From a virus: 64,000 nucleotides of DNA. The notes beneath the pieces were generated by a model. The model saw only the letters and a list, made by a program, of their open reading frames with translations, was not told the origin of the DNA and searched no databases. Positions 25,085 through 60,619 of the stretch are shown here, one piece after another. Made by a program: the position numbers and the translations under genes. The stretch lies in the IMG/VR virus record IMGVR_UViG_3300045988_082835; one strand, written 5' to 3'. Each line of letters begins with the position of its first letter. The stretch's first letter is position 1.

Positions 25085-25120
25085 AAAAAAAATGGGGAAC
25101 TCTTAATTGAGTTCCCCATC
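25085..25120. terminator. bidirectional terminator between convergent gene blocks
   Basis: atggggaactc-ttaatt-gagttccccat hairpin flanked by an A-run and a T-run. Confidence 0.6.
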
Positions 25121-25429
25121 CTTCTTTAAACGATTGAAAATTGAGTTAGTCATATTTATTATCTCTTGACCATAAGTTGCTATCAAATCTGCTAGCAATT
25201 CCTCTTGTTCAAATGATAATTCTATCCCATAACTAAACATTGCAGCGTGTGTTAATTCATGACATAAAACTTTTTTCATCATCGTTGAAGATAATTCTTC
25301 ATTGATATAAATACCTTTAGTTTTGCTATCGCAAGCTCCTATTGTTAATTGACCATCACTTCTAATTAACATAGGATGAATAGGAGAAGTTAAGAATAAT
25401 TTCCATTCTTCTCCATTTATATTAAGCAT
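25103..25429 (-). CDS. ImmA/IrrE-family HExxH metallopeptidase-like protein
   Basis: ORF track; VLCHELTHAAMFSYG motif. Confidence 0.5.
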   Translation of the reverse strand: MLNINGEEWKLFLTSPIHPMLIRSDGQLTIGACDSKTKGIYINEELSSTMMKKVLCHELTHAAMFSYGIELSFEQEELLADLIATYGQEIINMTNSIFNRLKKDGELN

Positions 25430-26024
25430 GGTTTAAAGAAGATATTTTTGTAGCAAGAGCAGAGATCTTTTTCTCTAGGAGCTGTCTTTCTTCTGGACTT
25501 GCATCATCAATCATTTCTACTAAATCCTCACTTAATTCTTTCATATATTTGTCCAATTCTCTAATTTTAGTATCCTTGTCTTTATGCAATTCTTTTGATT
25601 CCATATACATACGACGAGTAATTGGACTGCGGCCTTCGCGAGAATCTCTTAGTTCCATGGGATATTCTCTTTCGTTGTAATAGATTGGTTTTTCTCCATA
25701 TCCTTTACGACTACCTGACATATCCTCCATGTATCTGCCTTGAGAATCTCTAGAGCGAGGATAATACATTCTACCCCATTCATTTCTGTCCATATCTCTA
25801 TCGGGTAAATAATATGGAGGAGTAATTGGAATGTAATACTTTCTATGTTCTTCATCTTTCTCTTCCATTGCTTTTACAATAGAACAGTAGTACATTGCCT
25901 GCTCTAAATCTTTTATCATATCAATAGCTTCGCCTAATTCATGAGTGTCTACATTATGAATATCACTTAGCTATGATTGAACACACCCAATAAGAGTTTC
26001 TTTCATATGTTTAAGTCTTTCCAT
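25422..26024 (-). CDS. hypothetical Tyr/Arg-rich protein (about 200 aa, one TAG)
   Basis: ORF 25422-25919 extends in frame upstream across a TAG to the ATG MERLKHMKETL with a GGGTGG ribosome-binding site. Confidence 0.4.
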
Positions 26025-26026
26025 AA

Positions 26027-26449
26027 TTAAGCCACCCTTTCAATAATTAAATTTGCATTTTGGACGTCAATAGTCTGAGTAGAAACATTTTTTACTGCAA
26101 TTTCAAAGCAACATCCTCTTGGCACATCAATAAATATAGAACTTGCTACATTATTATAATCTCCTACCGCCGCCGGAGTAGAAATCATAGTAGTAGAAGC
26201 TACCCCTTCTCCATTGATAGCAATAGCTAAAGAAATTGGACCTGCTGTTCCACCTGCGGCGATTGCAATATTACCGCTAAAATGAGCTTTATATCTAGCT
26301 CTGCATTGAGTAGATGTATTACCTTTTAGTGTTACTAGTCCACTTCCAACGCGATGTAGTAGGCTGTTGGAACAGCCTACTACCGCATCGGTAAAAAGGA
26401 CATTTTGATTAGCTTGTACTGTTTGTACGGCATTCGCAATAATTTCCAT
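26027..26449 (-). CDS. hypothetical beta-rich protein (140 aa)
   Basis: ORF track; no in-frame TAG. Confidence 0.45.
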   Translation of the reverse strand: MEIIANAVQTVQANQNVLFTDAVVGCSNSLLHRVGSGLVTLKGNTSTQCRARYKAHFSGNIAIAAGGTAGPISLAIAINGEGVASTTMISTPAAVGDYNNVASSIFIDVPRGCCFEIAVKNVSTQTIDVQNANLIIERVA

Positions 26450-26477
26450 TGAACCAAATCTCTCCTTTTAATTTAAA

Positions 26478-27383
26478 TTAACACCCGCAATTACTCATGC
26501 TATAGCAACAGTTGGGGTTTGGTACTACATAAGCGGGAATTGGATTATCACGTCCTAATCTACGAATAAGCTCCGCAGTTTGAGCTTCTTGGTTAGCTGT
26601 AATAAAGTTATTTTGAGCTTGTTGAGAAGCAGCGAGACGAAGGGCCTGATTCTCGTTTTGCAAATCAGAGATTTTCTCCTGGCAGAGATAATCAAGAATT
26701 GCACGAGTTCCAGCATTTTGACTGTCAATAATATCACGAGTATTATTGGCCATAGAAGTCTGTAGTGCATTAGTATTAGTCGCTAGATTGTAGTTGACGT
26801 CGGCAAAACCTCTCTCAATCTGACGACCAGTCTCGCAGCAACAATCTGCAATTTGACGAGAAATAGCATTTTGATTTGTGAGATTATCAAAACTTGCTTG
26901 CTGAATTGCAGATTTTGTATCACAACAACAGTTAGAAAGCTGTGTAGCTAAAGCATTTTGACCCTGCATTAAAGCTACATTAGTGCTATTGAAACCTTGC
27001 TGTGTCTGATATCCAAGATTGCATACTGCGTTGTCTACTCCATGGAAACCATTTGTTAAAGCATTATTTAAAGCATATGTGCTATCACAGATTCCCTACT
27101 GGATAGAATTAATTCCAGACTGTAGATTTTGGAAAGCAAAACCTTCATTAATGTCTGCGCGAGTTGCCCAACCTTGACCAGAAGGAGAACCCAGACCATT
27201 ACTGTTGGCTCCATATCCACCAAAACCGCCAAATCCATTTCCCCATCCAGAGAAGCAGAATAAGAATAGAATTATAATCCACCAAGCTCCTCCGTCGTTC
27301 CAAATTCCGCCATTGTTACGATCATTGCCACCTGTAGCAGCAGCAATATCAGCTAAAGAGTATCCATTGTTAGAATTGAACAT
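26478..27383 (-). CDS. hypothetical Gly/Asn-rich protein with a transmembrane segment and repeated Cys-triplet motifs (about 301 aa, one TAG)
   Basis: ORFs 26478-26969 and 27096-27383 share a frame, joined across a TAG. AAAGGAGGAAC ribosome-binding site. WWIIILFLFCF transmembrane segment; NCCCDT and DCCCET repeats; CCYSMSNCGC at the C-terminus. Confidence 0.5.
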
Positions 27384-27408
27384 TTAAGTTCCTCCTTTAA
27401 GAAAATTA

Positions 27409-27642
27409 TTAAAGGCCGAGCATTTTCTTAAAGTCAGCAAACTCCTTGTCATAATTTAATCCTCTTTGGGATAAAAGATTTCTAGCTATTTGTTCAATCT
27501 CTTCGGTTTTATTCTATTTGGCAAGATCTAACAAATTAGCTCCAAACGGATTATTCCCCATCTAACTTTCTAATATATTTAGAGTTAGCTATTGAGGATT
27601 CTATCCATTCCTAATCATTTGAATTAACTACATTGGATTCAT
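27409..27642 (-). CDS. hypothetical small protein (about 77 aa, about 6 TAG)
   Basis: Frame reconstructed manually; TAAGGAG ribosome-binding site; MNPMQLIQMIRNGQNPQQL... Confidence 0.35.
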
Positions 27643-27654
27643 TTTATCGGCTCC

Positions 27655-28080
27655 TTAAAAATCTAATTTTGGCTTTGATTCCTGCTATTGCGCTGTAGGC
27701 TATTTATTTGCCTATGGCGCAATTTTTTCTTTTAATTGAGCAAGTACGGTTTCAAATTCTTCTCTAGTAACAAACTAAGAAGGATTGACAACTGTTTCAA
27801 TCGGAATATTTTTTAATTCATAAACATTAAGTGTTGAAGTTCCATCTAAATTTATCTATTTTGTATATATTTTTTTATTAGCTAAATCAGGAAAGAAAAA
27901 TACAGAACCATCAAAGTCAATGCTAGTTGCCTTTACTTCTTCTATTGAAGAAACTGGGCGACCTTTAATTCCAATCTAGGGCTATTCCACATAGGGCATT
28001 CTTTGTTGCGGAGCATAAGGGATTGCCGCATACTAAGGTTGCTATTGTTGTGGTATATAGTATGGATAATTAACTGCCAT
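27655..28080 (-). CDS. hypothetical Gln/Pro/Tyr-rich protein (about 141 aa, about 9 TAG)
   Basis: AAAGGAGGTAAAACTATG; MAVNYPYYIPQQQQPQYAAIPYAPQQRMPYVEQPQIGIKGRPVSSIEEVK... Confidence 0.4.
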
Positions 28081-28124
28081 AGTTTTACCTCCTTTAAAAT
28101 ATTCCCTTGGCCTTTCATTATTAT

Positions 28125-28176
28125 ATAAAATTTTGGCAAAGATAATTTTACTATTTTGCCAAAATTTTTGCCAATT
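28125..28176. promoter_or_regulatory. cluster of TTGGCAA/TTGCCAA dyad motifs (operator or recombination-site candidate)
   Basis: ttttggcaaa-N14-tttgccaaaa perfect dyad plus tttttgccaatttta. Confidence 0.35.
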
Positions 28177-28187
28177 TTAGTATAAAA

Positions 28188-28214
28188 ATATAATGGGGCA
28201 TAGTAACCCCATTA
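28188..28214 (-). terminator. terminator hairpin after the holin gene
   Basis: aatggggca-tagtaa-ccccatt followed by a T-run on the minus strand. Confidence 0.5.
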
Positions 28215-28216
28215 TA

Positions 28217-28606
28217 TCATGATGCTCTATTTTCATTAACCGCGGCTTCAATGAGATTAGTTAGGTAAGTATTTAAGTCGCCAGTTGTCTCAATAATATA
28301 TTGTTTTGCATCAGATGATAAGATCTCTAATACAGATTCCATAGTCTTATCAAATGCAATTTTTTGAGCCTCAGCATCAAAAGCACCTTGTTCTTTTAAG
28401 CTATTAACATAAGTCTGATTTGTAGCTATTACACATTTAGTAATAGTATCAAATATCATAGTGGTGTATTTCTAAGCTGTTTCATTCTCTGTCTTAGAAT
28501 TTAACTCATCTCGTTTAGCAGAGAGGAAATCTATGAGATATTTTGTTAAAATACCAAGCAGAGGAAGAATACAAAGCTAGAATATTTGAATAACAATTTC
28601 AGGCAT
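28217..28606 (-). CDS. putative holin (LL-H-like; N-terminal transmembrane helix, about 129 aa, two TAG)
   Basis: ORF 28217-28459 extends upstream in frame to the ATG MPEIVIQIFQLCILPLLGILTKYL with an AAAGGAGGAAT ribosome-binding site. Confidence 0.45.
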
Positions 28607-28657
28607 ATTAATTCCTCCTTTATATTATATATAAAACAAGAGGAAGATGGTTTAACT

Positions 28658-29285
<628 letters not shown>

Positions 29286-29289
29286 ATCA

Positions 29290-29352
29290 CCTCATAGATA
29301 TTTGAGAAATTGGCAATTTTATTTATTAATAATTGCCCAAAAATTTGGCAAT
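29290..29352. promoter_or_regulatory. TTGGCAATT repeat and dyad cluster immediately upstream of the recombinase gene
   Basis: aaattggcaatttt, aattgcccaaaaatttggcaatt, ccgcaattag. Confidence 0.35.
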
Positions 29353-29390
29353 TCCGCAATTAGATTTTTATATTATTTTATTATATAATA

Positions 29391-30071
29391 TATTTATAAA
29401 GAATAAGATTGTTCTTGGGATAATATAGATAGCATATTTTGAGCTAGATCGTCTGGTAAGTTTTCCGCTGAATAAGAGATATTTTCTATCTCTTCTCTTG
29501 ATGTAGAGCGTCTAATCCAAGTTAATAAATGATTACATAAAGTTGTATGATAGAGTTTATGCTATATGACAGATTGAGAAATATTCTTAATTTCCTCTGC
29601 TGTAAACATACGACAAAGGCTTTTATCCGCATGATAAGGATAAACAGAAGCTCCCTACTAAACAGCTGCCAATGCTGTTGTTAAGTTAATCTAGTCTGTT
29701 TCTTGTAAAGAGAAATGTTCTATTCCCTTTGAAGTGGTAATATCCATTCCTTCTATTATAGCTTTATTACAATAACTAGAGATTTGCTTTTCTTTTAATA
29801 GTTTTATATTTGGGAGTCTATCTTGCTCTATTTCTTCCTCCGTGCGTTCCATCGCCTAGCCGTCCACTAGCTTGTATCGGGGAATTCCATCGTTGATATA
29901 GATAGACTCTGGAAAATAGTTACCCTAAGCATGGTAATATTTATCGCCAAATCCGCTGTCAATCTCCGTGCCCCAGTCGGTGGAGACAAAGGCGGAGCTA
30001 TTGACGGCGGTAATGCGGCCTTGCTCGTCTGTCTGAACATAGACGATGTATGGTTCGAGTGTGTAGTCCAT
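29391..30071 (-). CDS. tail fibre assembly / chaperone-like protein (GC-rich N-terminal part, AT-rich C-terminal part with TAG)
   Basis: GAGGTGA ribosome-binding site; MDYTLEPYIVYVQTDEQGRITAVNSS...; frame reconstructed manually. Confidence 0.4.
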
Positions 30072-30083
30072 GGTGGTCACCTC

Positions 30084-31073
30084 TTATAGTTCGGCGGAAA
30101 GTGTAATCTTTGCCGTGCTGTTATTACTTCGTAAGAGCTGGGTAACTTGATTTGCTGGGCACCCAGACAATCCGTTGATTATCATGCTCACTGCGTTTGA
30201 GGACATCTGCTGGACGAAGAAATTTGATGCACCCGCTTCTACATTTATAAGTTGCCCATCGCCTCTCAGAAGCCAATTCCCTGCGGATGCGCATGTCGGC
30301 ATAATCCGCATCGTAGTAGGTGTTGGTATTGTGATTTCCGCCTCTGTTTCCGAAAAGAACGAACCAACCCCAATATTTGAAAACAATGTGTTGAATCCAG
30401 GCAAAACCAGTAGATACCTCTGGCACCGAGCCAGCTCCCCGGCATAATCCGGCGTCTCAAAGAGCTTCCAATTACTCTCCTCGTCCTGGTAAGCGAGGGT
30501 TTGGGTGGAGCCAAGCTCCAGCTTAGATGCTTGCAGGAGTACGCTGTTGCCTGCCGAGACGATAGCGCTACAAAAAAACCTGTCCGCCGTATTGTCATAA
30601 TTAAACTGGACAAATCCAAACGGTTTGATAATGTTTATGATATTTGTCCACGCACTCGGTTTTTCTTCCGGGGCAGACGTGGACATCGATAGCAGGTCTC
30701 CATCAACCAGTCCAGAGAGGCAAACTGTTTCTCCCAATAGACGGTCATTTGGAATGCCCAAAAATTGAATAAATTCCAGATTCCCTGTTGTAGCAGTTAA
30801 AGTGATTCCATCGCTGCCCAGGATTGCAGTGCCTTCCCCACTCAGCTTCCATCTGTCTATGAATCCCCCTGAACCGGCATGGCTCGTCTCCCCCCTCTGG
30901 TTAATGGGGAACTGCCCACCGCCCTGCTGGGAGCCGCCGCCCACGAAGTACCAGTTGTCCAGAAGGTTCCGGTTCGGTCGCCCACCGATGTTGCGGAGAG
31001 TTTTTTGGTAGTTGCTTAGGTTAGATAACTCCTTATTTGCTCCTTTAATCTAACCCTATAAAATACAATTCAT
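30084..31073 (-). CDS. tail fibre / receptor-binding protein with a compositionally foreign, TAG-free C-terminal 300 aa
   Basis: ORF 30084-30944 is 286 aa with no TAG and high GC. It extends in frame upstream across two TAGs in AT-rich sequence to the ATG MNCIL(Q)G(Q)IKGANKEL with an AAAGGAG ribosome-binding site. Confidence 0.5.
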
Positions 31074-31103
31074 AGCATAATTCTCCTTTCATCTAAAACT
31101 TTT

Positions 31104-31118
31104 GAAAAAGTACACTTT
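31104..31118. repeat. inverted repeat, left copy (hix-like dyad AAAGT-AC-ACTTT)
   Basis: Perfect 15-bp reverse-complement match to 31266-31280. Confidence 0.6.
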
Positions 31119-31398: not shown

Positions 31399-33162
31399 TT
31401 GCCTAAATGTATTTTAGCTGAATAGGGTGGAAAAGGTGGAGGTTCTCTTTCTCTTGTAAAAATTGAAGTAACCACTCCCCCTACTAAAACGAGCTATCTT
31501 GCTGGTGATACTTTTAATCCCGCGGGAATGGTAGTCACCGCATCTTACGGCATGGACGGCGTTATTGTAACAACAGCAGAAGTAACTGGGTATCAAGTTA
31601 CTCCAAACCCTTTAACTGATGGGGTTACTAAAGTAACAATTACTTACTCTGAATTAGGAGAAACTTGTTAGACCACTCAAGACATTACTGTTATTCATAA
31701 ACTTCTTAGTATTTAGGTTACTACTAACCCAACTAAGACAACTTATGAATATGGAGACACTCTCCAAACAACAGGAATGGTAGTTACAGCAAGTTATTCT
31801 AATAGTACATCATCCGCGGTTACCGGGTATAGTTGCTCTCCAACGTCATTAACTGCGGTTGGCACCTAGAAAATTACTGTTTCTTACACAGAAAATGGAG
31901 TAACTCAGTCTGCTTCTTTCAATGTTACTGTTGAAAGAAAATCGGCGCCGAAACCAACATGGAAGAATAATCTTACCTATACTGGTAGTAGCCAATCAGT
32001 AAGTGGTGCTTCCTATTGGAATAACTTTAATACCACTTATATGACGATTGGCGGGACAACTTCCGCGACTAACGCTGGAACCTATACTGCTACTTTCACA
32101 CTAAATAGTAATTATAGATGGGCCGATGGAACTACATCAAATCTTGATGTAAATTGGACTATTAATAAAGCTGCTGGAAGTTTAACAGTAAATCCGACTT
32201 CTGTAGCTCTTGATGGAGATAACTATAGTGCCGGTGTAAAGGTTACCATTACTCGTTCTGGAGATGGAGCTATTAGTTATAGTCCAACTAGCGTTTCTGG
32301 TTTAACTTTGTCTTTAAGTGGAAATGTTCTTACAATTAAAGGTGATGGCAGTACGGCTATTTCTTCTACTACTATTACTATTAAAGTCGCAGAGGGAACC
32401 AACTATATAGCCCCAGGAAATAAGACTGTTACTGTAACAGCTAGCTATTGGGAGTGGGGTTCTGAAACTACTGTTGGTGATGCTAAATGGTGGGCTGGAT
32501 TAAAAACATGGGCTGCTAAAGCGTCATCTGGAGAGCGAAAAAATTGTGTAGGCAAGAAGAAACTCGTAAGTCTTTCTTCTGCGGTCCTCGGGGGAAATGC
32601 TGCTACTATGATTTGTATAGGTGCAGATTAGGATGGTACTGGTACTTTAACTTTCTAGACTGCGGGAACCTTGCCAAACGATCTTTAGTTTGGTGATAAT
32701 GCAATCTGGATTGGTTCAGATGCTAGAAAGCAATGTCAAAATTTCTATAACTACTGTAGTGCTAAAGCATCCATTAAAACCGTAAGTAAAGGTACTTGTC
32801 CTAATTATGGAAGCAGAAATGAAAGCGTAACTTATAATAATGAAACTGTATGGTTGCCCTCGGAAAGAGAAATGGGATTAGATTCTTATTCTCCTATCTC
32901 CACTTCTAATAGTACAACTTCTAAAGCCGAGTGTACTAAAGGGTATAACGCACCCTATAGTTATTACACAAGTAATAGTAAACGTGTTAAATATTATATG
33001 AATGCCAATGGTACGTTAACGAGTAACACGAACTGGTATTGGGAACGGTCCCGTTACTACAACAACTCGAGCAACGTTTGCCTTGTCGACTACGATGGGT
33101 CTGCGAACGACAACAACTACTACTACAGCAACGGGCTCGCGCCGGCTTTCGTTATCGGATAA
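31399..33162 (+). CDS. DGR target protein: Ig-like (Big_2) repeats with a C-terminal C-type-lectin-like variable region (TTG start; several TAG)
   Basis: AGGAGG ribosome-binding site. ORFs 32041 and 32854 are in the same frame. The C-terminus ...WYWERSRYYNNSSNVCLVDYDGSANDNNYYYSNGLAPAFVIG is encoded by the variable repeat. Confidence 0.7.
33046..33145 (+). repeat. DGR variable repeat (VR)
   Basis: 100 bp matching the template repeat at 33769-33868 with 10 mismatches. Every mismatch falls at a template-repeat adenine, in AAC codons. Confidence 0.8.
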
Positions 33163-33182
33163 CACAATAAAATAACAATTCG

Positions 33183-33206
33183 GGACAGTTAAGATTAAAT
33201 TGTCCA
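33183..33206 (+). other. hairpin downstream of the VR (candidate DGR target-recognition stem-loop)
   Basis: ggacagtt-aagattaa-attgtcc. Confidence 0.35.
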
Positions 33207-33243
33207 ACTAAAATTTTATATATTCAAGTGAGGGAGATTTTAA

Positions 33244-33738
33244 ATGTCTGTAAAAGTAAAAGATAGACACATATCAAAGCAAGATTGTCTTTATAAAGCA
33301 CGCGACTTAATGGGATATATTTTAGTCTTGACTCGTCCTAGAGAATATGATAAGGATGGAAAACAAATTTGCAAGCCTGGACTGCTTGGAGAGGGTCAAC
33401 CTCTTCAAGCGTTCGGGTATGATATAATTAAGTGCGGAAAGGGCTTACATGCTTGTTGTTATGAGGCGTGTAAGATAAATTTGAAAGACAAAGAAACCCT
33501 TGCAAAGAGAAATGACTATCATAATAAAGCACTAGAATATTGTGATAGTATATTTCGACAAATCGACCTATGTATTTATTAGTATGCTCAGAACAGCAAA
33601 AAGAAGAGACGCTCTTTTGAACATCTAGCTAGATTGACAAAGAGAGTAAAAGAGTCAATCCAAGATAGAAAGAATAGAGATAAACTTATAACAGAGCATA
33701 GATATTCAGCTCCTAAAAGATATAGGAGAGGTCGATAA
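33244..33738 (+). CDS. avd: DGR accessory variability determinant (Avd)-like protein with a highly basic tail (one TAG)
   Basis: Lies between the target gene and the template repeat. ORF 33244-33582 continues in frame to ...KKKRRSFEHLARLTKRVKE...RYRRGR. Confidence 0.55.
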
Positions 33739-33768
33739 TATTTTTCTGCGGTTAAGTTCTGTATCTTT

Positions 33769-33868
33769 CGGTCCCGTAACTACAACAACTCGAACAACGT
33801 TTGCAATGTCAACAACGATGGATCTGCGAACAACAACAACTACAACAACAGCAACGGGCTCGCGCCGG
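33769..33868 (+). repeat. DGR template repeat (TR)
   Basis: Adenine-rich (AAC-rich) donor sequence. The overlapping ORF 33801-34022 is spurious. Confidence 0.8.
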
Positions 33869-34179
33869 ATTAGATGGAGCTATCATGTTGCGAGTTAAGC
33901 TGCGGAGCAGCGCAAACGAGCAACGCCTAAATAGTACCCCAGAGTATATTATTATCCATCTAATTAAGGTTTACTCTGGATTGCACTCACTTTATGTGGG
34001 GAAGAGATTGAGAGACCATTAAAGAGCTTTGCTCTACAACTATCGAATAATATACTATAGGTAGATCTGCCTTTTCATCTAAGGAGAACTTAACCATTTC
34101 ACTGAAAAAGTGGATAAAGTAAGACTGTAGACGTGGAGCTCGAGTAGCTACCACTATAGCTACATGATAAGGAGAAAGT

Positions 34180-35397
34180 ATGTCTGAAATAAAACAAGAT
34201 ACTGCTTTCGAGTGTTTTTGTAGTTTTGACGCTATGTATGATGCGTCTTATAAGGTATGTCGAAACGTTCGATGGAAAGATAGTACAATTAATTTTGAAG
34301 AGAATAGGATAGAAACAATTTTAAAAACAGAAGCTGACCTGCGAGCGTGTGAATACGAACAGCTTGTGTTTAGTTGTTTTTCGATAATCGAACGAGGCAA
34401 GCCAAGAGACATAAGAGCGTGTCATATCAACGACAGATTGGTGCAAAATGCATTATGTGAACAAGTTTTGCTACCAGAATTAACTCCTAGATTTATCTAT
34501 GATAATTGTGCAACCCTAAAAGGAAAGGGAATAGACTTCGCTCTGAAAAGGGTTAAGAAACATCTTCAATAGGCTCATAAAGAGTATGGGTTAGGAAAAG
34601 ATTTTTATGGATTAAGAATTGATATACAAAAATATTTTGATTCTATTGACCATGAATCTTTAAAGAAAGCAGCTAAACGACTAATAAAAGATAAACTTGT
34701 TTATTAGTTATGTTGTTACTTAATAGATACATTTTCTTTTAAGCTAACAAAAGATACTTCACCTATGCCAAATAAAATATATTACACAAGTAAACGACAC
34801 AAGTATGAAAGAGTTAATGTTACTCATTTCTAGCCTGGTCGTAAGTATTATGAATATGAAAGAAAGAGCCTAGGATTAGGAAGTCAAACATCACAATTAT
34901 TCGCATTGCTAGCATTGAACGAAATTGACCACTTCATAAAAGAAGAGTTACATATTAAGTATTATGGTCGTTATATGGATGATTTATACTTACTCCATAA
35001 TGACAGTAAATACTTGGCCGAATGTGAGAGACAAATAGAAATTCGCTTAAATAAACAAGGATTAAAGATGAATAAGAAGAAAACTACTATCACTAGAATT
35101 TCTCCTATTCACGAAGACGGTAAACGTCATGCTCCTTTTAAATATTTAAAGTGGAATTTTCATCTCACAGAAACTAATCATATAATACAACTTCCTTTCA
35201 AGAAAAAAGTAGCTCATTAGTGCAGAAAATTAAAGAAAATGCAAGCTTTATGGTTAGCTAATAAAATTTCAACTGAAGAAGTTTAGAAATCTTATTAGGG
35301 TTGGAGAGCACATATTTCTAAAGGAACTTGCTTTTATATAATTCAGGACATGGACAATTATTTTCGTTCATTATTCAAAGGAGTTGAAATAAAGTAA
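34180..35397 (+). CDS. DGR reverse transcriptase (about 5 in-frame TAG)
   Basis: ORFs 34180 and 34906 are in the same frame. RT motifs FYGLRIDIQKYFDSIDH and YGRYMDDLYLL (YxDD) are present. AAGGAGAAAG ribosome-binding site. Confidence 0.75.
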
Positions 35398-36059
35398 TGT
35401 ATATTCTATTAAATAGAGAGAATGTAGTAGTTGATATTCTTTCAGAAGCACGTTACATTAAACTGCAATCCTCAAACGGTATTGTCGTTGCCTGCGAGGA
35501 AGAAGAGGGAACTGGGGTTATCGGCTCAGACAGTGATACTCATTACACTCTAGTCAAAGCCGATGTATTAAATCAACCTAATGCTGTTACAGTATTAGAG
35601 TTAGAAACAATTCCATCAGATGTCATTCCTAACTATTCAAAATATAATCAAGAAGATGGTACTTTCATCGCTGATTTAAATTAGGCAAAATATGATAAAC
35701 AAGAGGAAAACAAGAAACTATTCGCAGAGTATCTTGCTACCCACCCATTAACTTGGGTTGATGGAAAAGAATATGGAATTACGTAGGAGGACCAGTCTGA
35801 GATTAGTTTGAATCTCAATCAATATTAGGTGGCGGTAGCTGCTGAAGTAGAAAATCCTACGCTTGAGTGGCACGCTAGACACGAAGAGTGCGTACCATGG
35901 ACTTTAGAGCAATTATCTGCTCTAAGTTTAGCTATTTCTAATGCGGTATATCAGAAATATCATTTAATGCAAGAATATAAAACCTAGATATTTGGAGCTA
36001 ATTCGATAGATGAATTGAAAGCTATTGAGTTGAATTATGAAGATACCGACAGTGAGTAA
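35397..36059 (+). CDS. tail fibre assembly-like protein (about 220 aa, about 5 TAG)
   Basis: ORF 35397-35684 continues in frame. The C-terminal region TLEWHARHEECVPWTLEQLSALSLAISNAVYQKY is of tail-fibre-chaperone type. Confidence 0.4.
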
Positions 36060-49755: not shown

Positions 49756-49780
49756 AATAGGGGAGGAAATCTCCCCTATT
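49756..49780 (-). terminator. hairpin after the tape measure gene (terminator or attenuator)
   Basis: aataggggag-gaaat-ctcccctatt. Confidence 0.4.
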
Positions 49781-52700
49781 ATTCTTTTCTTCTATTCGCC
49801 CATTGAGTAGCATCATCCGCCAAACTACGAATAGCATCTTGAATTTCATCAGAAGATGTCGCATTGGGGAATTCAACTCGTTCAATATTTATATTTGGCT
49901 AAACCACATTATCTGTCGGCGCAATCTAGGTATTAGTTCCCAATCTAGATGCCATAATACTAGAAATAGATAGTGCGTTCCCGTCAAGAGTTTTCTCAAT
50001 AGAGGCTATAAAACTAGGTCCAAAGGCTCTCATAGCAGAGACCGCCGCCAAGATATTTTTCGTATCCTCTTGATTTAAAACTAACTCTTTTTCATGTAAG
50101 AAAGCTAATTTAGCATTATCAAATTCTCCAGTATATCCTCCAGTATCGAAGCCACTTATCTAACTTTCTTTTAGCCATCCATAAGCGGAATTATTGGACT
50201 GTACATGGATTGGATAAGGTCTACCCTTAGCTATGTTTGTTATTCTAACCTTTTTACCTGGACCGCGTCTACCAGCAGGATCAGTGCCATAAGAATCATG
50301 ATAGTAAGTTCCACCAGTATAAATAACTTCATCTCCTACTTCGGGGATTCCATTACCTCCTCCAGTTCCACTACTGGAAGATCCACTACCACTATTGCCT
50401 GAGCTACCTTTATCAGTATCAGAAGATTGACTTGAATCAGAAGAAGGCAAGTCATCTTTATCTATACTTCCTGCGCTTTCTATTGTGTTACCAGCAGCTC
50501 TAGCGGCTTCTTCAAGCGCTCTTATATATTCTCTGACTGAATCGGCCATATCTAAATACTCTTGACTTAAATCTTGAATAGTGCTTATCTATTCTAACAT
50601 CTAAGTAACGGCATTTGATCCAGCCTCAGAGCACAAATCAGTAGAAGTTGAAACATCGTCGATATAATCTTTTAAATCATCGAGACTTGTTCCAGTCTAA
50701 TCGGCTACTCCAGAAACAGTAGTTTGATAATCTTCCATCGCTCCGCTAGCTTCATCCATTGCATTAGATAAAAACTCTTCAAAGTTACCAGCATTAGCGG
50801 TCATATTGGCTAAGTCTTTCGCAAATACATTATCAAATAGGTCAATAAGTTTTGTATTACTTCCTACTATATCTTGAATCTACTCGTTATCTGATAGTAA
50901 CAAATCAATAATGCTAGAGCCAGAGTTAGCTATAATATCTTGAATTTCTTGACTTGTAATTCCAGTTAGGTCACTTACCTCGTCTCCCGCAACAATAGCC
51001 ATATCAATTAAAGCTTTATTGCCGGCTTCGGTCATATCCTTAATAGCGATCTATTTTTCGCTCTCTAAGTCCTTAACCTTCTGCGTATAATAAGAATAAA
51101 TTTCTTGCGCGCGAGCAGATCTTTCTTCATCAGTCAAGGTCATATCAGAATAGATTTCTTTTATCTTATCTTGACACTCTTGCCAAGTAGAAATAATCTC
51201 TCCTGTAACATCCTCTACCTGTTGCTTTGCTATATTATACCATTCGTTCTCCGCATCAAGTAAATTCTGCTCTGCGTCAGCTATCTGGCTCGCATCTGCG
51301 GTGTATTGATAATTCCAGTTACCTTGACTATCTCTCACTAGTCTAAGTTGATTTTTCGCATTTTGAGCATCTTCAAGTGCCATCTAAGCCTAAAGAACAT
51401 TATACTTAGCTTCGAGAATTTCTAAATCGTATTCAGATAAGGTATTGTTCTCTCTACGTATATCAATTTCCTCTTGTAGCTATTTTAACTAATCTTTCAT
51501 CTTAGAGTTAGTAGCCTTATCAATATCCTGTTGTAGTTTATTATACCAAGAAGATACCTCATACGCTTCATTTACTTTATCTAAATATCTATCCTCTTGT
51601 TCGATATAATGATCGAATTTGTCTTGTAGTAGATCTAATCCTACTCCACCAGAAACAGCCTATCCAAATTCATATACTGCTCTTTCAATAGCTTGAGTAT
51701 ACATCTCCTAAGCAGTCTCCATAGCAGCTTGCGCGGAACTTAACATAGCCTCTTGTGCTTCATTAAATTCTTCTAGTAGAGCATCTCTATTAGCTTTTAA
51801 ACCATCATATGCAGGATCGGTTTCATCTCCGCCTAATGCATCTAATGCAGCTTGAGCTTCCAATAGTTCTTGACGGATTCCGTCATACCATTGTTTATTC
51901 AGCTATGCATTGGCGACCTAAGCCTTCATAGTTTCTTCGCTTACTTCTTGAAGCTATTCAAATCCTTCTTCGGTCTTATATGTAACTCCCTAAAGAGCAT
52001 ATAATTCTTTGATGAGCCCTAGAACAGATTCATTATGATCAAGCTAATCAGTAAAAGCAGCAAATCTTTCTGACGCGGCATCTAATGCATCTGGTAGCAT
52101 TTCTTCAAGACCTTCTACCCAATCAAGCAAAGCCTCTGCGGTAGAAATCATTTTACCTTGTAAGTCAGATAACTTACTTACAATCTCATCAATATTAGTC
52201 GCATCTGTGGCATTAGCTAATTCTTCCTGATAACTTTTAAGGGCTTCTTCATAGCTCTTGATGATTTCAATGTTCTCGTTCATACTGTTTTTATCAATAC
52301 GAGCGACTTCCATTCCATGAGTTAGCTCATCACCAAAAGATTCTGCTATTTGTCTTGTTAGCTCATTAACCGCATCTTTAGCATCTTTTATATCTATCGC
52401 AACTTCAAGTTTATATTCAATCTAATTTAATCTATTATCTGCAATATTTCTTTCTAGCTCTTCTTGCTCATCTTTTACATCTTGAATCTTGTCAAGAGTT
52501 TCTTCATATTGAGCTAAAGCGTCCTAACGAGCCTAGAATAATTCATCAGCAACTTCTTTTTGTAATTGCCAACTATCATATTCTGCCTATCTAGCCTCCT
52601 ATTCATCTTTAGTAAGACTGCTAAACATTAATAAGAAAGCGTTGTAATCGGTTAAGAAGTTATTATTATAATCATCAACAATAGATTGAAGAACGTCTTG

Positions 52701-55700
52701 ATAACCTTCAATTTCTCCATTTTCATCAAAAGTAAGAGAATTGTTGAATAATCCTTGAAGGTCTGATCTATCTTTCTCAAGATAGGTCTCAGCCTCATCA
52801 AGCATCTTATTATAATTAGCTTGCTGTTTTTCTAACTCTTGAAGCTCTTTCTAATAAGCCTATAATTTCTTCGCTCCATATGCTCTATCTATATTATTAC
52901 CAATATCATCTAATAAATTATTCTAATTCTCAATCTCACGAGTTATTTCATGGTATCTATCTTCTATATCTTCAAGAGTTTTTTCATCTTCGGCATCATA
53001 TTTTGTACCTTCGTTATCTCCGCCAGAATCTTTATTTCTAATATTGTCTGTTGCTATTCTATTCGGATCTAATGCTCCATCAGGATCAAATGCAAATGGC
53101 TCCTAACCATAATCAAAAATACCATTCTATCCAGATCCCGTACCCTAAGAAGATAAATATGAACCAGCTTCTTTTAGAGCATTAGTAAAATTACCAATAG
53201 CATCTCCGCCCTCGCCGGAAATTTTTAATCCTAGAGTGGGAAGCTCAAAAGGAAGATCCGCTTTGCCAGCTAGCCAATCATCTATCTATAATTTTCCCCA
53301 TGATTTTACATATGGAGTAAAACCTAAATCATATTCAAAATTAGAAATTAAATCTCCTAGTGCTGTTAGAACAGCCCCAGCCGCCTATGAAGTTGAGCTA
53401 ATTGTATTAGCACTCTCGGACATAGTAGAATTAATAACGGCTCCAGCGATACTAGCATCAGTGGACATTGCTTGCATTAAAGCATCGGCGCTTGTATCTA
53501 GTCCATTTGCTAGCGTTACTCCCTAATCAAGAACACCCTAGAGAATCCTTTTATAAGATTCGTTATTAGTCTATTCTAGTCCTACGAGCTATTGTCCAAT
53601 ACTTGATACCATTGCCTAAAATTCTGTCGCAGTAGTATCGAAATTATTATCAATGGTAAAATCTATCGCTCCAAAGCTATCAGCATAGTTTAATAAGTAA
53701 TCGTAATTATCTACTAAACTATTTACAATTCCCATCATGTCTTGGGCATCGCTCACTTGTTTTTCCCAAGTATTTAAATTAGATATATCAGACATGGTTC
53801 TGGCATATTCTTCCTCAGAAATTGTAGTTTGATCTACTCCATCTTTGAGTTCCCAAACTCCGTCTGTATTTTTTGTAATATTCTAATTTAATTTAGACTA
53901 AGCCGTAATTAATGCTTTCGTGGCAGCGATTGTTCCCTCATAGTAATCATCCATATTGATGGTTCCAGATTTAAACTTTTTATTTAAATCTATCAGTCCA
54001 TCCCCTATAGACCCGGTTGCAGCGACCAAAGTAGCTTCATATAAATCAGTTTCTTCTATATTATCGTCAATTTCTTCGTTTAATCTATGAAAGCCTGCAT
54101 TTATATTACTTAATCTTTTATTAATCGTATCAAAATATTCTTGGGCAGATATTGCCCCCTCCTGATACGCTTTCGCATTATCACTAAGGGCCTATGTTCT
54201 CTCTTTAAACAATTCTACATCAGTTTCACTTGTAAACGTATAATCATTTATTGCATTTGAATCACTGGCTCGCGATACTAATTCATCCCACATATTAATA
54301 TAATTCTAGAGATAATCAGTATTTACCCCATATTTTTCTTTCATAGATTCTATTGTAGCATCAAGAATTTGCTCTTCTTGTCGTTCAGAATCTAAAAATG
54401 TCTAAAGAGACTAATTTGTTAGTTTATACGCATCTCCAACTTTAACAATATACTAAGCATATCTTTCATCTGCATTAATGAGTTCTTGAACTTGATCCAT
54501 GGTTAGATAGCCTTCTTGATCCTTATATGACTATAAGGCAGATTCAAGAGCACTCTAACTATTATTTAATTCTTCCAATATAGATTTTAAGTCGTCTATT
54601 CCCTTTACATTTATATTTATTTCATTAATTTTATAATTATCTAAAAATTCCTATAATTCTTCAACCGCATCAAAATTATCTATATTGACATCCATAAGGA
54701 TTTCCCAATCCTCATTTGATAGAGAATCAAAATCAAAATCACTAAATTTACTTTCTACTTTTTCCTTTGCTTCATCTACTCTGCTATCTACAAAAGTTAA
54801 AAACTCATCTACGCTGACTCCAGCTAACATTAATTCATTTTTAATGGATTCTGTTATCAAACCAGAGGCTGCACTAATATCACTACTAGCCAAAGTGCTA
54901 TAAAGCTAAGTAGAAATCTATTTAACTGATTGGTTATCTAAAATTGGTTTTAATATAACCTCTTCATATTCACTTTGACTGCCATAAAGATTTTTACGAA
55001 TAAGAGATAACTGCTCCTGCATTGAAGCTATCATTTCTGGATTATACTCAATAACCCCGTCAGTAACAGATTTAATATATGCAGCATAATCATCTTCTGC
55101 TTGCTATATAGCTTCAGAATTGTCAGTTACCCACTGTGCCGTAATCTATTCATTTTGAGTAACCCAATCTTGATACTCTACTAAGTAATCACGATAGGCA
55201 TCAGAATTTTTATCAAGGCCCTAAGTAATACTATTAAACCAAGTGTCTGCATCTACGTACTAATCTTTATAAGTATATCTATTCTATTCAAGTACAAATT
55301 GAGCATTTGGATCATTTAAATCCATGCTCTATTCTAACTCTTTAAACCAGTCCTAGTCTCCATTGTATTCATTCCAACTTCTCCACTAGGTTAAATCTGG
55401 TCCTCCTGCCAAACTCTTAGTAGATTTATCATAATTCTCTTCGATAGTTTTTGCCTAGGCTTTTTGCGCTTCTTCTGTTAACTTCTCTTGTAACTCAACC
55501 TATCTCTACAAAGAAGATTCTGCCTATTTAAGTTTTTCTAATTCTTCTTGTTCGACTATACTTAAAGAATCCTAATTATTTAATTCTTCTATTCTATCTT
55601 TCGTTGTCTATAATTCAGAATTTAAAGATTCTAATGCAGATTTCTAATCCTCATAAGCCTAGGTAGCACTAGATATTTTTTCTCTAGCCTCTTCTTCCGT

Positions 55701-58478
55701 AACAATAATGAGAGAAATAACATTAACAAGTAAGGTTACTCCCAAAGTGATTAACCCAATAAGTGGTAAAGCAGTTGAGATAGCCGCACCAACAGTAGTA
55801 ATACCAGCAGCCGCAGTTTTAGCTGAAGCTCCAACTGTTAAATACGATATTGCAGTTAAACTATTTTGTAATGCCTGCTTTTTAAACAAGGTAGAGATTG
55901 TTGGTAATAACATTCCAAAGTTAGTAAGAATAACTGTAAAATCTTCAACAGTAAACTCTCCCTCTTTCACAGAATTTGTAAAAGTAGAGAACATGGAATT
56001 AATACTTGTCATTCCCATTGTAACTTGCGATAAAGTGGTTCCTACTTTAACCAATGTCTCAGCCCAGTCTAAAGTAGCATATCTGTTATTCTTTAACCCC
56101 TCACTAATTTCTTTTGTTTTCTACTGTAATAATTCTAATCCCTATCTAAAAGCCTCAGCACTAATTTCATTATTCTTAAAAGCTGCTACAAGACCACTTA
56201 GATCATTTTTAAATTTAACAGAACCATCACCTAAAGAAGTAATAACTCTATTTAATGCAGCAACGTCTGATTCTGCCCCTTTTAATGCTTCCTAAAACTA
56301 CTAAGAGGTAGTAAGATATTCTATTATCTCCTAATTTGTTGCATCTTGAGCACCTTCAAAAAGATTTAGGCTTCTTACTAAATTAATAGTTTCTTGAGAG
56401 ATTTCATTGGTTCCAGAACCAACTAATTTCTATACTTGCTAAAACTTAGAAAGACTTACGCTCGCCACTTTTAATTTGTCAATTAAACTCTAAAGGGCTT
56501 GCTAATTTGTCTTTGAACTATAGAGAATTTCTGTTTCTATGTCCTCATAAAAAGAAAATTTATTTTCATCTTCTAACACAAGCGCCGATAGTAGATTATC
56601 CTTCCATTTTTTATTGGGAACTAAACGCTCAGACAAACTATTTGTATAAGCTGTAATAAGTTCATCTGATTTGCTAACCTACTACCCAATTAAATTAACC
56701 TATGTCTATAAAACCTTTACTCTATCTAAATCTTGTTGTAAAATACCAGCCTAGCGCTCAGATAGTTGTGTGGCCGCAGCGGACGCTTCTCCTTCAAGCT
56801 AAACAATCTAAGCTTGAGTATTTACCATCTATCCCTAAATAGTATTATCAAGTGCGGATTTCGCGATAATATCAGCCATCTATGCGGCTTCAGTTCTCAA
56901 AGTTTGCGCTCTATCCTTTTCTCTCTATCCGATAATACCAAGATTAGAAGCAATATCTCTCATTCCTTGCGCAATCTTATCACCAAAAGCCTTATTCATC
57001 AGTAAAGCAGTTGTTGCTAAAACGCCAGACATTCCGCCTAAACCATCAATAATATCAGCAGTTGTACTTAAAATAGGACTAAGAACATCATCTACCCCAA
57101 TATAAAAATCAGGATTTATTAAACTATCATAAATATCTTCCGCGGATGCTCTTACTCTATCTCTTGCCGCCTCCCAAGATTCAGCATAAATATCTGCTTG
57201 TTCTTGTAGAGATCCTTCTGCTCCATAAGAACTCTCCAAATTTTCCTAGAAGAAATCCCAGTTATCCATAAGAGCAATAAGACGAGTATATTGACGTACT
57301 CCAGCTACAGTCTGTGCTAATGCAATCTATTGATCATTAGATAGAGTTTCCCATTTCTCTCCCATTTCATCTAATAAAGTATCCATAGTCTTGATTTCTC
57401 CATTAACGTCAAAGATGTTAATTCCAACTTTATCAAGAGCCTAAGAATATTTATTTAGAGTAGTTCCATCATCAAGTGTTTCTCCAAGATTTAAGCCCTG
57501 AATACGTGCAAATAATGTTCTAAATGCAGTACCTACAGTATTCGCAGATTCACGAGTTGTAGCAGTAACAGTAGCAAGCGCAGACGCGGCATACTCATAA
57601 CTCAAACCTACCGTCTCTGCAACTGCGGCAAACTGCTAGATACCTTCTGAAATTTCATCAGAGCTTGATGCAGTATCTGCACCTAAGCGCACCATGACGT
57701 CTGCATAATACTCAAGACTTTTACTTCCATCATAGAAGTTATTCCATACCGCAGTTAACTAGTCAGATGCAGTCTAAGCGCTAACACCCGCGGCGTTTGC
57801 CATTTTTATAGTAGTTTCAGTTCTATCTAAAACTTCCTACTCAGTAAGGCCCTACTGATAGTAAATCAGAGCTGCGTCAGTATAATCTACTGTAGTTGTA
57901 CTCAATGCCTTAGCTGCTTCGTTAGCCTACTTAGCAAAAACAGCCATATCCTCGGCAGAATTTTCAGTAACTATACGAATGTTTGTCAGAGATTCATTTA
58001 AATCTTTTGCATAACCATAAGCTGTCTCTAAAGAGCCAATAAAACCCTATAAAGTGCTTGCTGTAATCTACCAACGAACCGTATTTTTCATTGTAATCCA
58101 CAAATCAGACATTAACTTATTAGTTCTGATTAACGGAGTTTCCGCCGCCATAATAGCCTGAGAAAGATTTAAGAATGTTTCTTGCCCCTAAATTCCCAGT
58201 TTGCTTAGTTGATTATAATAGTCTGTTAAAGTCTTTCCGCTTTTTACTAAACTATCATTAAAAGCAGTCAAATCTAACTTACCTGAATTTCCATTAGTAG
58301 CCATCTAAAGATTACGGCTCAATTCAAGGGCCGCCAAAGATGCCTACTGAAGTTCACTAGAAATAGATGGCTAATTGCCTAATTTCTATAAACTATTTAT
58401 AACTTCATTAACAGAGGTTTTTAGCTGACTCGCGTCAGCGGTAAACCCAATCTAATAGTTTAATCTTTTATTAGCCAC
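49779..58478 (-). CDS. tail tape measure protein (about 2900 codons, dozens of in-frame TAG; GTG start)
   Basis: All seven ORF-track fragments between 50160 and 57239 lie in one frame. Extended coiled coils, a transmembrane block (55659-56054) and a C-terminal motif are all of tape-measure type. Stops between fragments were not all checked. Confidence 0.55.
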
Positions 58479-58588
58479 AGTCCTTTTCCTCCTTTATCTC
58501 TACGATAAAACAAATAAGGCTCTTGAGAATTATATCTTCTCAAGAGCCTTTTAATTCTCTATCTAATTTGTAAATTTTATTAGATTTA

Positions 58589-59119
58589 TTAATCTTTTCC
58601 AACCACATCTTTAATTACTGATAGTGTTTCAAGATTTTCACCATTCTTAATCTTTTCTAGCATATCAGTAATATATGTATCAAGACCAGAAGCATTTTTA
58701 TTCATCATCTGAATAATGCCGGCCGCAGAACTATTATATCTTGAAATATCGCTTATAGTATCCTTAACTAAATCCTCAATAAAAGATAGTTCCTCCACCG
58801 GAATAATATCACGAATTGCATCAATTACACCGTTTGTCTCAAGAGTGTCATAGGTTTTTGCGATATTTTCATGCACATCTTCTGGCTCAAAAGTAATTCC
58901 GCCATACCATCTGCATATAGCAATAGCAAAATAGGTCTCCACTCTAACTGGACTAAAACAGCCAGTTGCCTCATCTATTGATAAATCAGTGACAAACATA
59001 ATAAGATTTGTTTTATCAGCAATAGGAAGATAATTAGCCACAGACAAAATCTTATCTGCTCCAACCTTTACTTCTGTATATTTAACTTTAGGCTCAAGCC
59101 CCAAATCTTTAAAAGTCAT
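58589..59119 (-). CDS. tail assembly chaperone (gpG-like) candidate
   Basis: ORF track; lies immediately upstream of the tape measure gene. Confidence 0.4.
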   Translation of the reverse strand: MTFKDLGLEPKVKYTEVKVGADKILSVANYLPIADKTNLIMFVTDLSIDEATGCFSPVRVETYFAIAICRWYGGITFEPEDVHENIAKTYDTLETNGVIDAIRDIIPVEELSFIEDLVKDTISDISRYNSSAAGIIQMMNKNASGLDTYITDMLEKIKNGENLETLSVIKDVVGKD

Positions 59120-59182
59120 TGTAAAATCTCCTTTATCTCATTTATATTTTTATTATACTAGAAAAATTAACTATTGTCAAGT

Positions 59183-60619
59183 TTAATATGCGTATTTAGA
59201 TAGTATATTATTATTTAAAGTTGCTGCAATAGTTAATTTATTTATAACTCCATTGACTATATTACTACGGGTGATTGCATCTAATATGTTTGCTCCAGAA
59301 TTGCCATACCACTTATTACCCAGAGCGCCTTCTCCACCAATAGAAACCACTTCATGAGCACTATTTCTAACAATATCATCACAGATATTATTAATAATTC
59401 GCTAGATTGAAAATACTCTACCATTAACTATAATAAACTATCCTAAATGACCCTTCTATGAACTAAACTCACTAGACTGAATCCACTAATTAAAGAAGGA
59501 CGCTGCAACAGAAGCCCGTATATTATTAAACGATTCTTCAAAATCAGCTCCAGTATATCTATGAGCAATCATATTATAAGCAAGATACTTCTCTGGCTAA
59601 CCAGAAAAATATTCTCCAACATTCATACTTGAAGAAGCAGAAATTTTATTCTAAGACATTTTCTTATTTTGCCATCTTGCATTTACATTTGTCCCTATCT
59701 CTATATTAAAAGTCTGATTGCCCTTGGTTACTTGCAAACTAAAGGTATCATTATTAAATATATTTGTAGTACCTTTAGACTTAGAGACATTATTCTATCC
59801 TTTATCAACCCATCGCAATTTTCCACCAGATTGCGCGATTACCTTATCTAATATACTATCCGCGGTATTAACTCCTATTGATATACCCTCTGCAACTATC
59901 GCCTAACTAATCTAATTTCCAATAACCCTTCTAAATATATAAGCAATAGTATTAGCAAAAGAACGAGAGTTTACTGATCCCTATTCACTTAAACGAGTAA
60001 CAGCCCTGTTTAAAGAATCTATTACATCTTTTGCGATATTTATATCTCCTTTGCCAACAGCCATAACATAACTTTGCTATGCCTAATCTATCTAAAAGCT
60101 AGTTCCTATTAGCTATCTTCCAATCTATGTTAAAGCATCAAGAACATTAACATTTATCATATTCGCTTTCGTTAAAGCTGATATAAGTAACCTAAAGAAA
60201 TCATTCACTCTCTATATTTCCGGTGTACCAGTTGATAACAAGTTATTAAAGCTTCCAACCTATTGCAATATAGTATTATAGTTTTCAAAATCTACCTATC
60301 CACCAGCTAATTCAATACCCTCATTAATACCGGCGGCAATCTAATCAAGAGTAGAGTCTAATAGGGTTCCTATCTCTAGATCACTTAGAATCTTTAATCC
60401 ACTGGCTGCGGAAGGCGCTTTTAGCTGCATCTATTCTTGAATTGAGGAGATCTAAGCCTCAATTCCCGCGGTCTATGCTTTATTTACTGCCTATTGATAC
60501 TATGCGCTGAATAAGGTATTCGCTGATTCTACGTCGCCATATTCTCTCAAATGGCTACTGTGATATACAATATAGTTAATAGACCAACGCTAAACATAAT
60601 CATAAATATCAATATCCAT
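59183..60619 (-). CDS. structural protein with extreme TAG density (about 35 TAG in 478 codons)
   Basis: AAGGAG ribosome-binding site; length divisible by 3; MDIDIYDYV(Q)RWSINYIV...; no ORF-track entry at all. Confidence 0.35.

Follow-up and report, generated by a model that had tools for sequence, protein, structure and literature searches.

Uneven amber codon use among the genes of a TAG-recoded phage

Why would a phage crowd some of its genes with in-frame amber (TAG) codons and keep others free of them? This question is raised by a 64-kb stretch of viral DNA (IMG/VR record IMGVR_UViG_3300045988_082835; GC content 34.7%), the whole of which is referred to here as the window. We found that TAG is read as glutamine and that its use differs strongly among genes. 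The explanation we consider probable is a combination of AT-biased mutation with avoidance of TAG in early, heavily translated and imported genes, which would leave a leaky temporal dependence on suppression as a by-product.

TAG as a glutamine codon

Open reading frames (ORFs) of at least 150 amino acids cover 32% of the window in the standard code, 90% when TAG is read through and 35% when TGA is read through. Because coverage is restored by TAG and not by TGA, TAG is a sense codon, in agreement with the amber recoding proposed by an earlier reading of the sequence (hereafter the original prediction). On the same ORF coverage, recoding of TGA or TAA was rejected. When window genes were aligned to a relative at 92% identity (locus L003), window TAGs stood opposite TAG 71 times, CAA 19 times, CAG 10 times and no other codon more than 6 times; conversely, TAGs of L003 faced CAA 31 times and CAG 10 times. 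Frequent exchange between TAG and CAA, a two-base change, is expected only between synonymous codons, and TAG therefore encodes glutamine. The glutamine content of standard-code relatives also equals the sum of CAA, CAG and TAG in recoded ones in every ortholog group (6.2 versus 6.1% in the tape-measure protein, 6.3 versus 6.6% in g56, 4.5 versus 4.6% in the portal and 3.9 versus 3.9% in TerL). Among standard-code relatives at greater distance, the residues overrepresented opposite TAG sites are Q, E and K. Glutamate and lysine were rejected as the encoded residue, as both the TAG/CAA/CAG exchanges and the preserved glutamine content point to glutamine.

These relatives belong to one family with conserved gene order (loci L002-L080, centred on the tail protein gene) in which standard-code and TAG-recoded members are interleaved. 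Because the two kinds of relative share gene order, the family provides a clean natural experiment. One member (L010), with a tail protein 70% identical, keeps the standard code, and in two others (L056 and L058) it is TGA read-through that raises ORF coverage instead, from 0.80 to 0.93 and from 0.83 to 0.95, respectively.

No tRNA gene was detected in the window or in the first ~100 kb of context beyond it. A tRNA(CUA) gene lies ~27.8 kb upstream of the window start in the closest contig, IMGVR_UViG_3300045988_075249 (L266:1325-1399; ARAGORN; Infernal score of 60 bits). It is located in a second, small tRNA cluster, ~7.5 kb past an array with tRNA-Gln(UUG) and tRNA-Gln(CUG), the order across L273 and L266 (~8.5-28 kb of the contig) being Arg, Ser, Pro, Val, Gln-UUG, Gln-CUG and Leu, then Ser, Sup-CUA, Leu and Cys. 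The genes around tRNA(CUA) contain 0-1 TAG each. At the syntenic site, many recoded relatives also carry a tRNA(CUA), and relatives identified as standard-code are without one. Derivation of the suppressor from the phage tRNA-Gln genes was considered and is not clear, since its identity to them (69% and 55%) is no better than to other tRNAs. Because the isotype is not readable from sequence identity, the assignment of TAG to glutamine rests on the codon evidence.

Common to the suppressor tRNAs of the family are a discriminator G73 and a mismatch of two pyrimidines at 1:72, features that we take to resemble glutamine identity elements. The tRNA array is followed by a set of genes reminiscent of RNA repair, namely a Thg1-like tRNA guanylyltransferase, an RNA ligase, a kinase-like gene and phosphoesterases. 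We speculate that the conserved mismatch, together with the Thg1-like and RNA-ligase genes, hints at a maturation step controlling suppressor activity; the tie of the Thg1-like gene to recoding is weakened by its presence in a standard-code relative. A motif check of 121 kb, which is a weak test, revealed no release factor or class I aminoacyl-tRNA synthetase 'code-change' motif.

Distribution of TAG among genes

With TAG read through, 58 genes were delimited in the window, containing 332 in-frame TAGs among 19,769 codons. The counts are highly heterogeneous among genes (chi2 = 270, df 57, p = 2e-29), also inside the glutamine codon family (chi2 = 235, p = 1e-23), so that the strong non-uniformity noticed in the original prediction persists once genes are correctly delimited. 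Genes were then grouped by class on a 121-kb composite of the window and its flanks, and TAG was expressed as its share of glutamine-family codons, TAG/(TAG+CAA+CAG). The classes and the main features of the window are:

Upstream tRNA/auxiliary region: TAG share 0.08.
1-25083, plus strand: replication and nucleotide-metabolism module (SSB-like, DnaB, primase, RecJ-like, helicase, Pol III alpha at 14233-18135, NrdD at 18722-20902, NrdG, dUTPase, ThyX, RuvC and two GIY-YIG endonucleases); pooled TAG share 0.17, heterogeneous (p = 4e-15).
25103-31073, minus strand: mixed block g30-g38, with TAG-poor g32 and g33, recombinase g36 and fibre-like g37 and g38; TAG share 0.26.
30084-31073, minus strand: tail-fibre-like g38; codons 31-330 GC-rich, first 30 AT-rich.
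31528-36495, plus strand: diversity-generating retroelement and neighbours; TAG share 0.31.
Lysis genes: TAG share 0.38 (endolysin 10/23, holin-like gene 1/1).
Twenty low-copy late genes: TAG share 0.55, homogeneous (p = 0.06).
36541-58304, minus strand: tail/baseplate module g44-g52; TAG makes up 43-79% of glutamine-family codons in most genes.
49779-58304, minus strand: tape-measure gene; 2841 codons, 98 TAG.
Five virion genes (g53, g55, a 178-aa gene, a 350-aa capsid homologue and a 229-aa gene): TAG 0/40.
58589-59119, minus strand: g53, chaperone-like (PHROG 30570); 0 TAG, a single glutamine codon.
59183-60619, minus strand: g54, 478 codons, of unknown function, between the tail protein gene g55 and the chaperone-like g53.
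60677-62071, minus strand: g55, probable major tail protein, 464 aa; 0 TAG, 8 CAA, 7 CAG; GC 41.7%.
62086-64000, minus strand: g56-g58, head-tail connector and structural genes; TAG share 0.40-0.75; g58 cut by the window end.

TAG load thus follows the module, as anticipated, climbing from the auxiliary region through the replication and lysis genes to the late genes. The gradient recurs in 10 recoded relatives, in which the TAG share is 0.09-0.23 in the early region versus 0.28-0.48 in the late region. Per 1000 codons, late genes contain 28 in-frame TAGs versus 25-33 off-frame, replication genes 7 versus 20-27 and the five virion genes 0 versus 14. Because late in-frame density equals off-frame density, the signal is one of depletion in some genes and not of enrichment elsewhere; the late TAG load, originally described as extreme, is high relative to early genes and merely matches the off-frame level.

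Late TAGs behave as ordinary AT-favoured synonymous codons. Their ratio to CAG (6.4) tracks that of TTG to CTG (7.2), the analogous first-position synonymous pair. Site conservation relative to the 92% relative is 55% for TAG, 49% for CAA, 59% for AAA and 68% for GAA, and individual TAGs show no sign of selective maintenance. TAG sites turn over much as CAA sites do, selection for TAG in late genes is not evident either as a preference over CAA/CAG or as positional conservation, and TAG positions are evenly spread along genes (Kolmogorov-Smirnov p > 0.08).

The tail genes are TAG-loaded, as had been claimed, with 7-98 in-frame TAGs apiece (98 in the tape-measure gene, 32 in g51, 27 in g48, 25 in g54 and 17 in g45). 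For g54 the original prediction gave ~35 TAGs, or 7% of codons; the real in-frame number is 25 (5.2%), with 57 TAG trinucleotides over all frames. It was correct that this gene is hidden from a standard ORF track, the longest standard-code ORF on its own strand reaching at most 55 aa. TAG supplies 71% of the glutamine codons of g54, and the same position is also TAG-rich in 24 relatives (0.52). PHROG, Pfam and NCBIfam searches with g54 returned no match. Translation of the tape-measure gene, with its 98 TAGs, must require very efficient late read-through, on the arithmetic that 0.99^98 is ~0.37 and 0.95^98 is <0.01. Tail length usually scales at ~0.15 nm per tape-measure residue, and the 2841 codons of this gene predict a tail of ~400 nm.

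The absence of TAG from particular virion genes is a property of the family. The comparison covered 24 non-redundant recoded relatives with tail-protein identities of only ~55-60%. The pooled TAG share of four virion genes is 0.00, 0.01, 0.04 and 0.01 in these genomes, versus 0.28-0.52 for other late genes (portal, TerL, connectors, the g54 position and the tape-measure gene), and in 21-22 of the 24 the capsid and tail genes lack TAG altogether. At g55, 3 TAGs occur among 252 pooled glutamine-family codons. The pooled family share of g53 is 0.12, and its zero in the window says little alone because the gene has only one glutamine codon. The product of g55 matches PHROG 2729 'virion structural protein' (E = 4e-56), and the gene sits upstream of the chaperone-like and tape-measure genes, as in Enterococcus phage VRE9_3; it is the probable, not proven, major tail protein. 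Its lack of TAG, against 15 CAA/CAG, was correctly noted, but the gene lies beyond the interval 25103-60619 to which the pattern had been assigned.

The four TAG-free genes favour CAG and G-ending lysine and glutamate codons, standard-code relatives included. Ortholog groups with a higher CAG share in standard-code relatives have a lower TAG share in recoded ones (Spearman rho = -0.82, p = 3.5e-4, n = 14 groups). The late genes without TAG are exactly those with expression-type codon bias, both in the 24 recoded and in the standard-code relatives, which supports the proposal that highly expressed genes are spared the recoded codon.

An artefact, be it a chimera of a standard-code and a recoded phage, a TAG that does not encode glutamine or programmed read-through of some genes only, is so improbable as to deserve little weight. 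Gene order and TAG pattern are repeated in several independent contigs and in the 24 divergent relatives; genes with many TAGs and genes with none alternate along a single operon-like block (g53, g54, g55 and g56); and the exchange counts and conserved glutamine content described above favour glutamine. Relative to its closest public contig, 075249 (132.9 kb), the window differs by one 745-nt insertion and 1-5% substitutions: the first 4354 nt are identical, and the remainder after the insertion is 95-99% identical.

Replication genes present a second, less uniform case of depletion. The SSB-like g07, DnaB (g11), primase (g12), Pol III alpha (g18; 1 of 48 glutamine-family codons) and NrdD (g20) are TAG-poor. 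NrdD (18722-20902, 726 aa) has 0 TAG versus 31 CAA/CAG, as predicted, and likewise falls outside the 25103-60619 interval. The generalization that replication genes carry 0-3 TAGs each did not survive. It is exceeded by the RecJ-like g14 (9745-11496, plus strand; 583 aa, 13 TAG), the RuvC-like g28 (24075-24581; 7 TAG) and the GIY-YIG genes g03 (1022-1933; 11 TAG, share 0.58) and g27 (23441-24106; 7 TAG, share 0.70); ThyX (g05), with three TAGs, is a further TAG-rich outlier. The g14 gene starts at TTG with a GGGAG ribosome-binding site. Gene calls restricted to ATG starts lose its DHH domain; no other gene of the replication module is as rich in TAG.

Replication and late genes have similar CAA/CAG ratios (3.7 versus 4.3), and the TAG share is threefold lower in replication genes, which show native AT-rich codon use (GC at third codon positions, GC3, of ~0.25). 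Because the share is lower at an equal CAA/CAG ratio, a second factor independent of codon bias is needed, for which timing relative to suppressor accumulation would be the obvious candidate.

Avoidance, imported genes and gating

Recent import accounts plausibly for part of the TAG-free DNA. The foreign tail-fibre segment that had been described as lacking TAG corresponds to codons 31-330 of g38 (30084-30983), which have ~50% GC, a GC3 of 0.53 versus 0.25 genome-wide, and 16 CAA/CAG with 0 TAG; the two TAGs of the gene are confined to codons 6 and 8, in its AT-rich first 30 codons. Several TAG-free upstream auxiliary genes are CAG-only with a GC3 of 0.4-0.5, and the inserted HNH-like g08 is TAG-free. 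That TAG-free genes in general are recent standard-code imports which have yet to gain TAG is nonetheless quite improbable. The capsid and tail genes belong to the syntenic core of the family, are TAG-free in nearly all of the 24 recoded relatives and show the same codon bias in standard-code relatives, and the replication genes are TAG-poor despite their native AT-rich codons.

A second alternative is that the late TAGs form a selected temporal gate. In this model, developed by Borges and Yutin and published for other phage clades, TAGs in late and lysis genes are maintained to block translation until the suppressor changes the code of the cell. The rise in TAG share from auxiliary to replication, lysis and late genes, with the early/late gap in 10 relatives, is what such a gate would produce, and the suppressor tRNA is placed among TAG-free genes. 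The endolysin, with TAG at 10 of its 23 glutamine codons, and the holin-like gene, at its only one, would be under its control, and the TAG-rich GIY-YIG homing endonucleases of the early module parallel the intron endonuclease of Borges et al. The replication genes do not fit. Of the 1300 codons of Pol III alpha, number 927 is TAG; TAG also occurs in DnaB (codons 18, 272 and 406) and in primase (codon 222). Because these genes and ThyX contain TAG, replication already depends on suppression. The auxiliary region is nearly TAG-free, yet the expectation that early and replication genes can be read in the standard code fails for g14, Pol III alpha, DnaB, primase and ThyX.

At the other end of the cycle, suppression is needed by the 20 late genes and the endolysin and is not needed by the capsid gene, the tail-tube-like gene and their two neighbours, here and in the 24 relatives. 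The strictly suppressor-dependent set consists of low-copy assembly proteins, terminase, portal, endolysin and homing endonucleases. With TAGs in the middle of the genes for Pol III alpha, DnaB and primase, and none in those for the bulk virion proteins, gating would be leaky at best. The TAG share of the endolysin (0.43) is also below the late-gene mean (0.55), and the frequency and turnover of late TAGs match those of neutral synonymous codons. We therefore regard a selected gate as rather unlikely. The suggestion that amber recoding gates late translation holds for the rise in TAG share from early to late genes, and not for replication genes, which need suppression, or for the bulk virion proteins, which are ungated.

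Avoidance acting on a background of AT-biased mutation would explain these observations as follows. The phage would decode TAG as glutamine by means of its own tRNA(CUA), and AT-biased mutation (CAG to TAG) would push the decodable TAG to about half of glutamine codons. Most low-copy late genes, including those for the tape measure, baseplate, fibres, portal, terminase and endolysin, would stand at that level. TAG would be lost, or never gained, in three kinds of gene. The first are genes whose translation precedes or overlaps the build-up of the suppressor and its competition with host release factor 1 (the auxiliary/tRNA region, gyrase, ligase, SSB, NrdD and Pol III). The second are the virion genes with the heaviest translation, those for the major capsid and tail proteins and two neighbours, which prefer G-ending codons even in standard-code relatives. 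The third is recently imported DNA, here the C-terminal segment of g38. Low-copy assembly and lysis proteins would not be completed without the suppressor, and the resulting temporal dependence would be a by-product rather than a designed gate. The analysis establishes the recoding to glutamine, the tRNA, the distribution of TAG, the conservation of this distribution and its correlation with codon bias; when the genes are translated, what it costs to decode TAG and which way selection acts are inferred.

Several points weigh against avoidance. The tRNA(CUA) comes from a contig that is 95-100% identical and lies outside the window itself; at 69% identity to the phage tRNA-Gln(UUG), it is no nearer to that tRNA than to others. 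The classes 'early', 'late' and 'abundant' are drawn from gene function, synteny and codon bias. The late level is only approximately neutral, because pooled late shares differ (0.28 for the portal versus 0.52 at the g54 position), and tRNA selection also acts on the TTG/CTG proxy. A gene of 2841 codons with 98 TAGs needs near-complete late read-through, which weakens the case for a high decoding cost at that stage. We hold only tentatively, and at less than even odds, that TAG is not a fully equivalent sense codon and that a measurable cost of decoding it has excluded it from the major capsid gene, the major tail gene and two of their neighbours in dozens of divergent recoded lineages.

If TAG does carry such a cost, the per-gene TAG share would be a readout of translation level and timing obtainable from the genome alone, and recoding would limit only low-copy assembly and lysis proteins and not bulk virion synthesis. 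In uncultured recoded phages, the share may offer an inexpensive indication of the temporal class and expression level of a gene. That uneven TAG use is largely explicable by mutation pressure and avoidance also tempers the popular reading of recoding as a lysis timer. For annotation, the practical consequence is that standard gene callers lose about two-thirds of the genome, including the tape-measure gene.

Neighbouring features and known recoded phages

The 745-nt insertion (4355-5099) contains the TAG-free, HNH/zinc-finger-like g08 (4493-4978), and a similar gene, g16, is present at 12486-13013; both are probably mobile endonucleases. In the mixed block, the serine recombinase g36 (28658-29359, minus strand) has its true start at TTG 29359, carries 7 TAGs and adjoins the tail-fibre-like g37 (DUF4376) and g38. 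This region might be a fibre-switching cassette; a search for an invertible segment found no convincing inverted repeats around the recombinase and tail-fibre genes. At 26027-27383 (minus strand), g32 (PHROG 20016), which is TAG-free, and g33 are of unknown function. The g33 product has a high content of Gly, Asn, Gln and Cys, and the gene has 25 canonical glutamine codons, 11 of them CAG, and 1 TAG. Since the codon use of g32 and g33 resembles that of abundant virion genes, they may be highly expressed.

The diversity-generating retroelement is complete (31528-35397, plus strand). It comprises the target gene g39 (31528-33162) with the variable repeat (33046-33148), the Avd-like g40 (33244-33738), the template repeat (33769-33871) and the reverse transcriptase g41 (34180-35397), and all 11 of the 11 differences between template and variable repeats fall at template adenines. 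Beyond the window, by the terminase region, the first 5000 nt of L191 (L191 1-5000, ~121.9-126.9 kb of the contig) have a GC3 of 0.46-0.60 and only short, unconvincing ORFs; this segment may be of foreign origin, be non-coding or reflect a join in the assembly. Rfam searches matched nothing in the window.

A megablast of 22 kb of the window against INPHARED phages gave no nucleotide-level match. Near-identical contigs are present in IMG/VR, and about 290 relatives are available for comparison. Homologues of the g55 product and of a capsid-like protein occur in phAss-1, placed by NCBI in the "Caudoviricetes code 15 clade", and in cultured phages that infect Bacillota and keep the standard code (Enterococcus EF1/VRE9, Lactococcus 949 and Bacillus Sophrita). 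A module like that of phAss-1, EF1 and 949 is present, with portal, PHROG 35301, PHROG 4088 capsid, PHROG 2729 tail protein, PHROG 30570 and a long tape-measure gene, and replication based on Pol III alpha is shared with these phages as well, as judged from PHROG, tblastn and synteny with VRE9_3. Homology and gene content thus point to a large siphovirus-like gut phage of the phAss-1/Enterococcus EF1/Lactococcus 949 group as the source, and the host is probably a gut bacterium of the Bacillota, with the Clostridia among the candidates.

Stop-codon recoding in phages was reportedly described by Ivanova in 2014. The phage of the window is a new member of the phAss-1-like group, and uneven amber use is itself already known. 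For phAss-1, Babkin et al. (2023, PMC10607447) reported TAG-to-glutamine recoding, three tRNA-Sup(CTA) genes and 41 recoded ORFs; among TerL, the major capsid protein (MCP), the tape-measure protein and Pol III alpha, the recoded list includes TerL and the tape-measure protein only. That paper agrees with the TAG pattern found here, without analysing per-gene TAG share, codon bias or a neutral expectation. Like the window phage, members of the phAss-1 group come from the human gut, have genomes of ~130-160 kb, read TAG as glutamine and carry tRNA-Sup(CTA) in a large tRNA array. The tail protein of phAss-1 is homologous (48-53% identity), its replication genes are the same and its relatives include Enterococcus phage EF1. 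It is nevertheless distant, with a different synteny and a GC content of 43% versus 35% in the window.

Concentration of recoding in late genes is established (Yutin 2021, PMC7886860; Borges 2021 preprint, 10.1101/2021.08.26.457843; Peters 2022, PMC9523058), with peptide-level proof at recoded stops for crAss-like phages only (PMC9523058). As in those systems, standard-code hosts are combined here with a phage suppressor tRNA and with stops concentrated in structural and lysis genes. Borges (10.1101/2021.08.26.457843) also found replication genes to be variably recoded, close relatives to use the standard code and an early-region homing/intron endonuclease to be strongly recoded. Unlike in those systems, lysis genes of the window phage are not preferentially recoded over other late genes. 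In crAss-like phages the MCP itself holds recoded stops and has served as a recoding marker (PMC7886860), and because of this the family-wide absence of TAG from the MCP and major tail protein genes represents a real difference.

The closest general parallel is rare-codon avoidance. A link between TAG share and codon adaptation may already have been published, given that our literature search was limited. As expected from such avoidance, the genes that avoid TAG are those that prefer G-ending codons, in standard-code relatives too. In contrast to ordinary rare codons, the 'rare codon' here is a reassigned stop, for which one phage tRNA competes with the host release factor, and early genes show a second depletion that is independent of codon bias.

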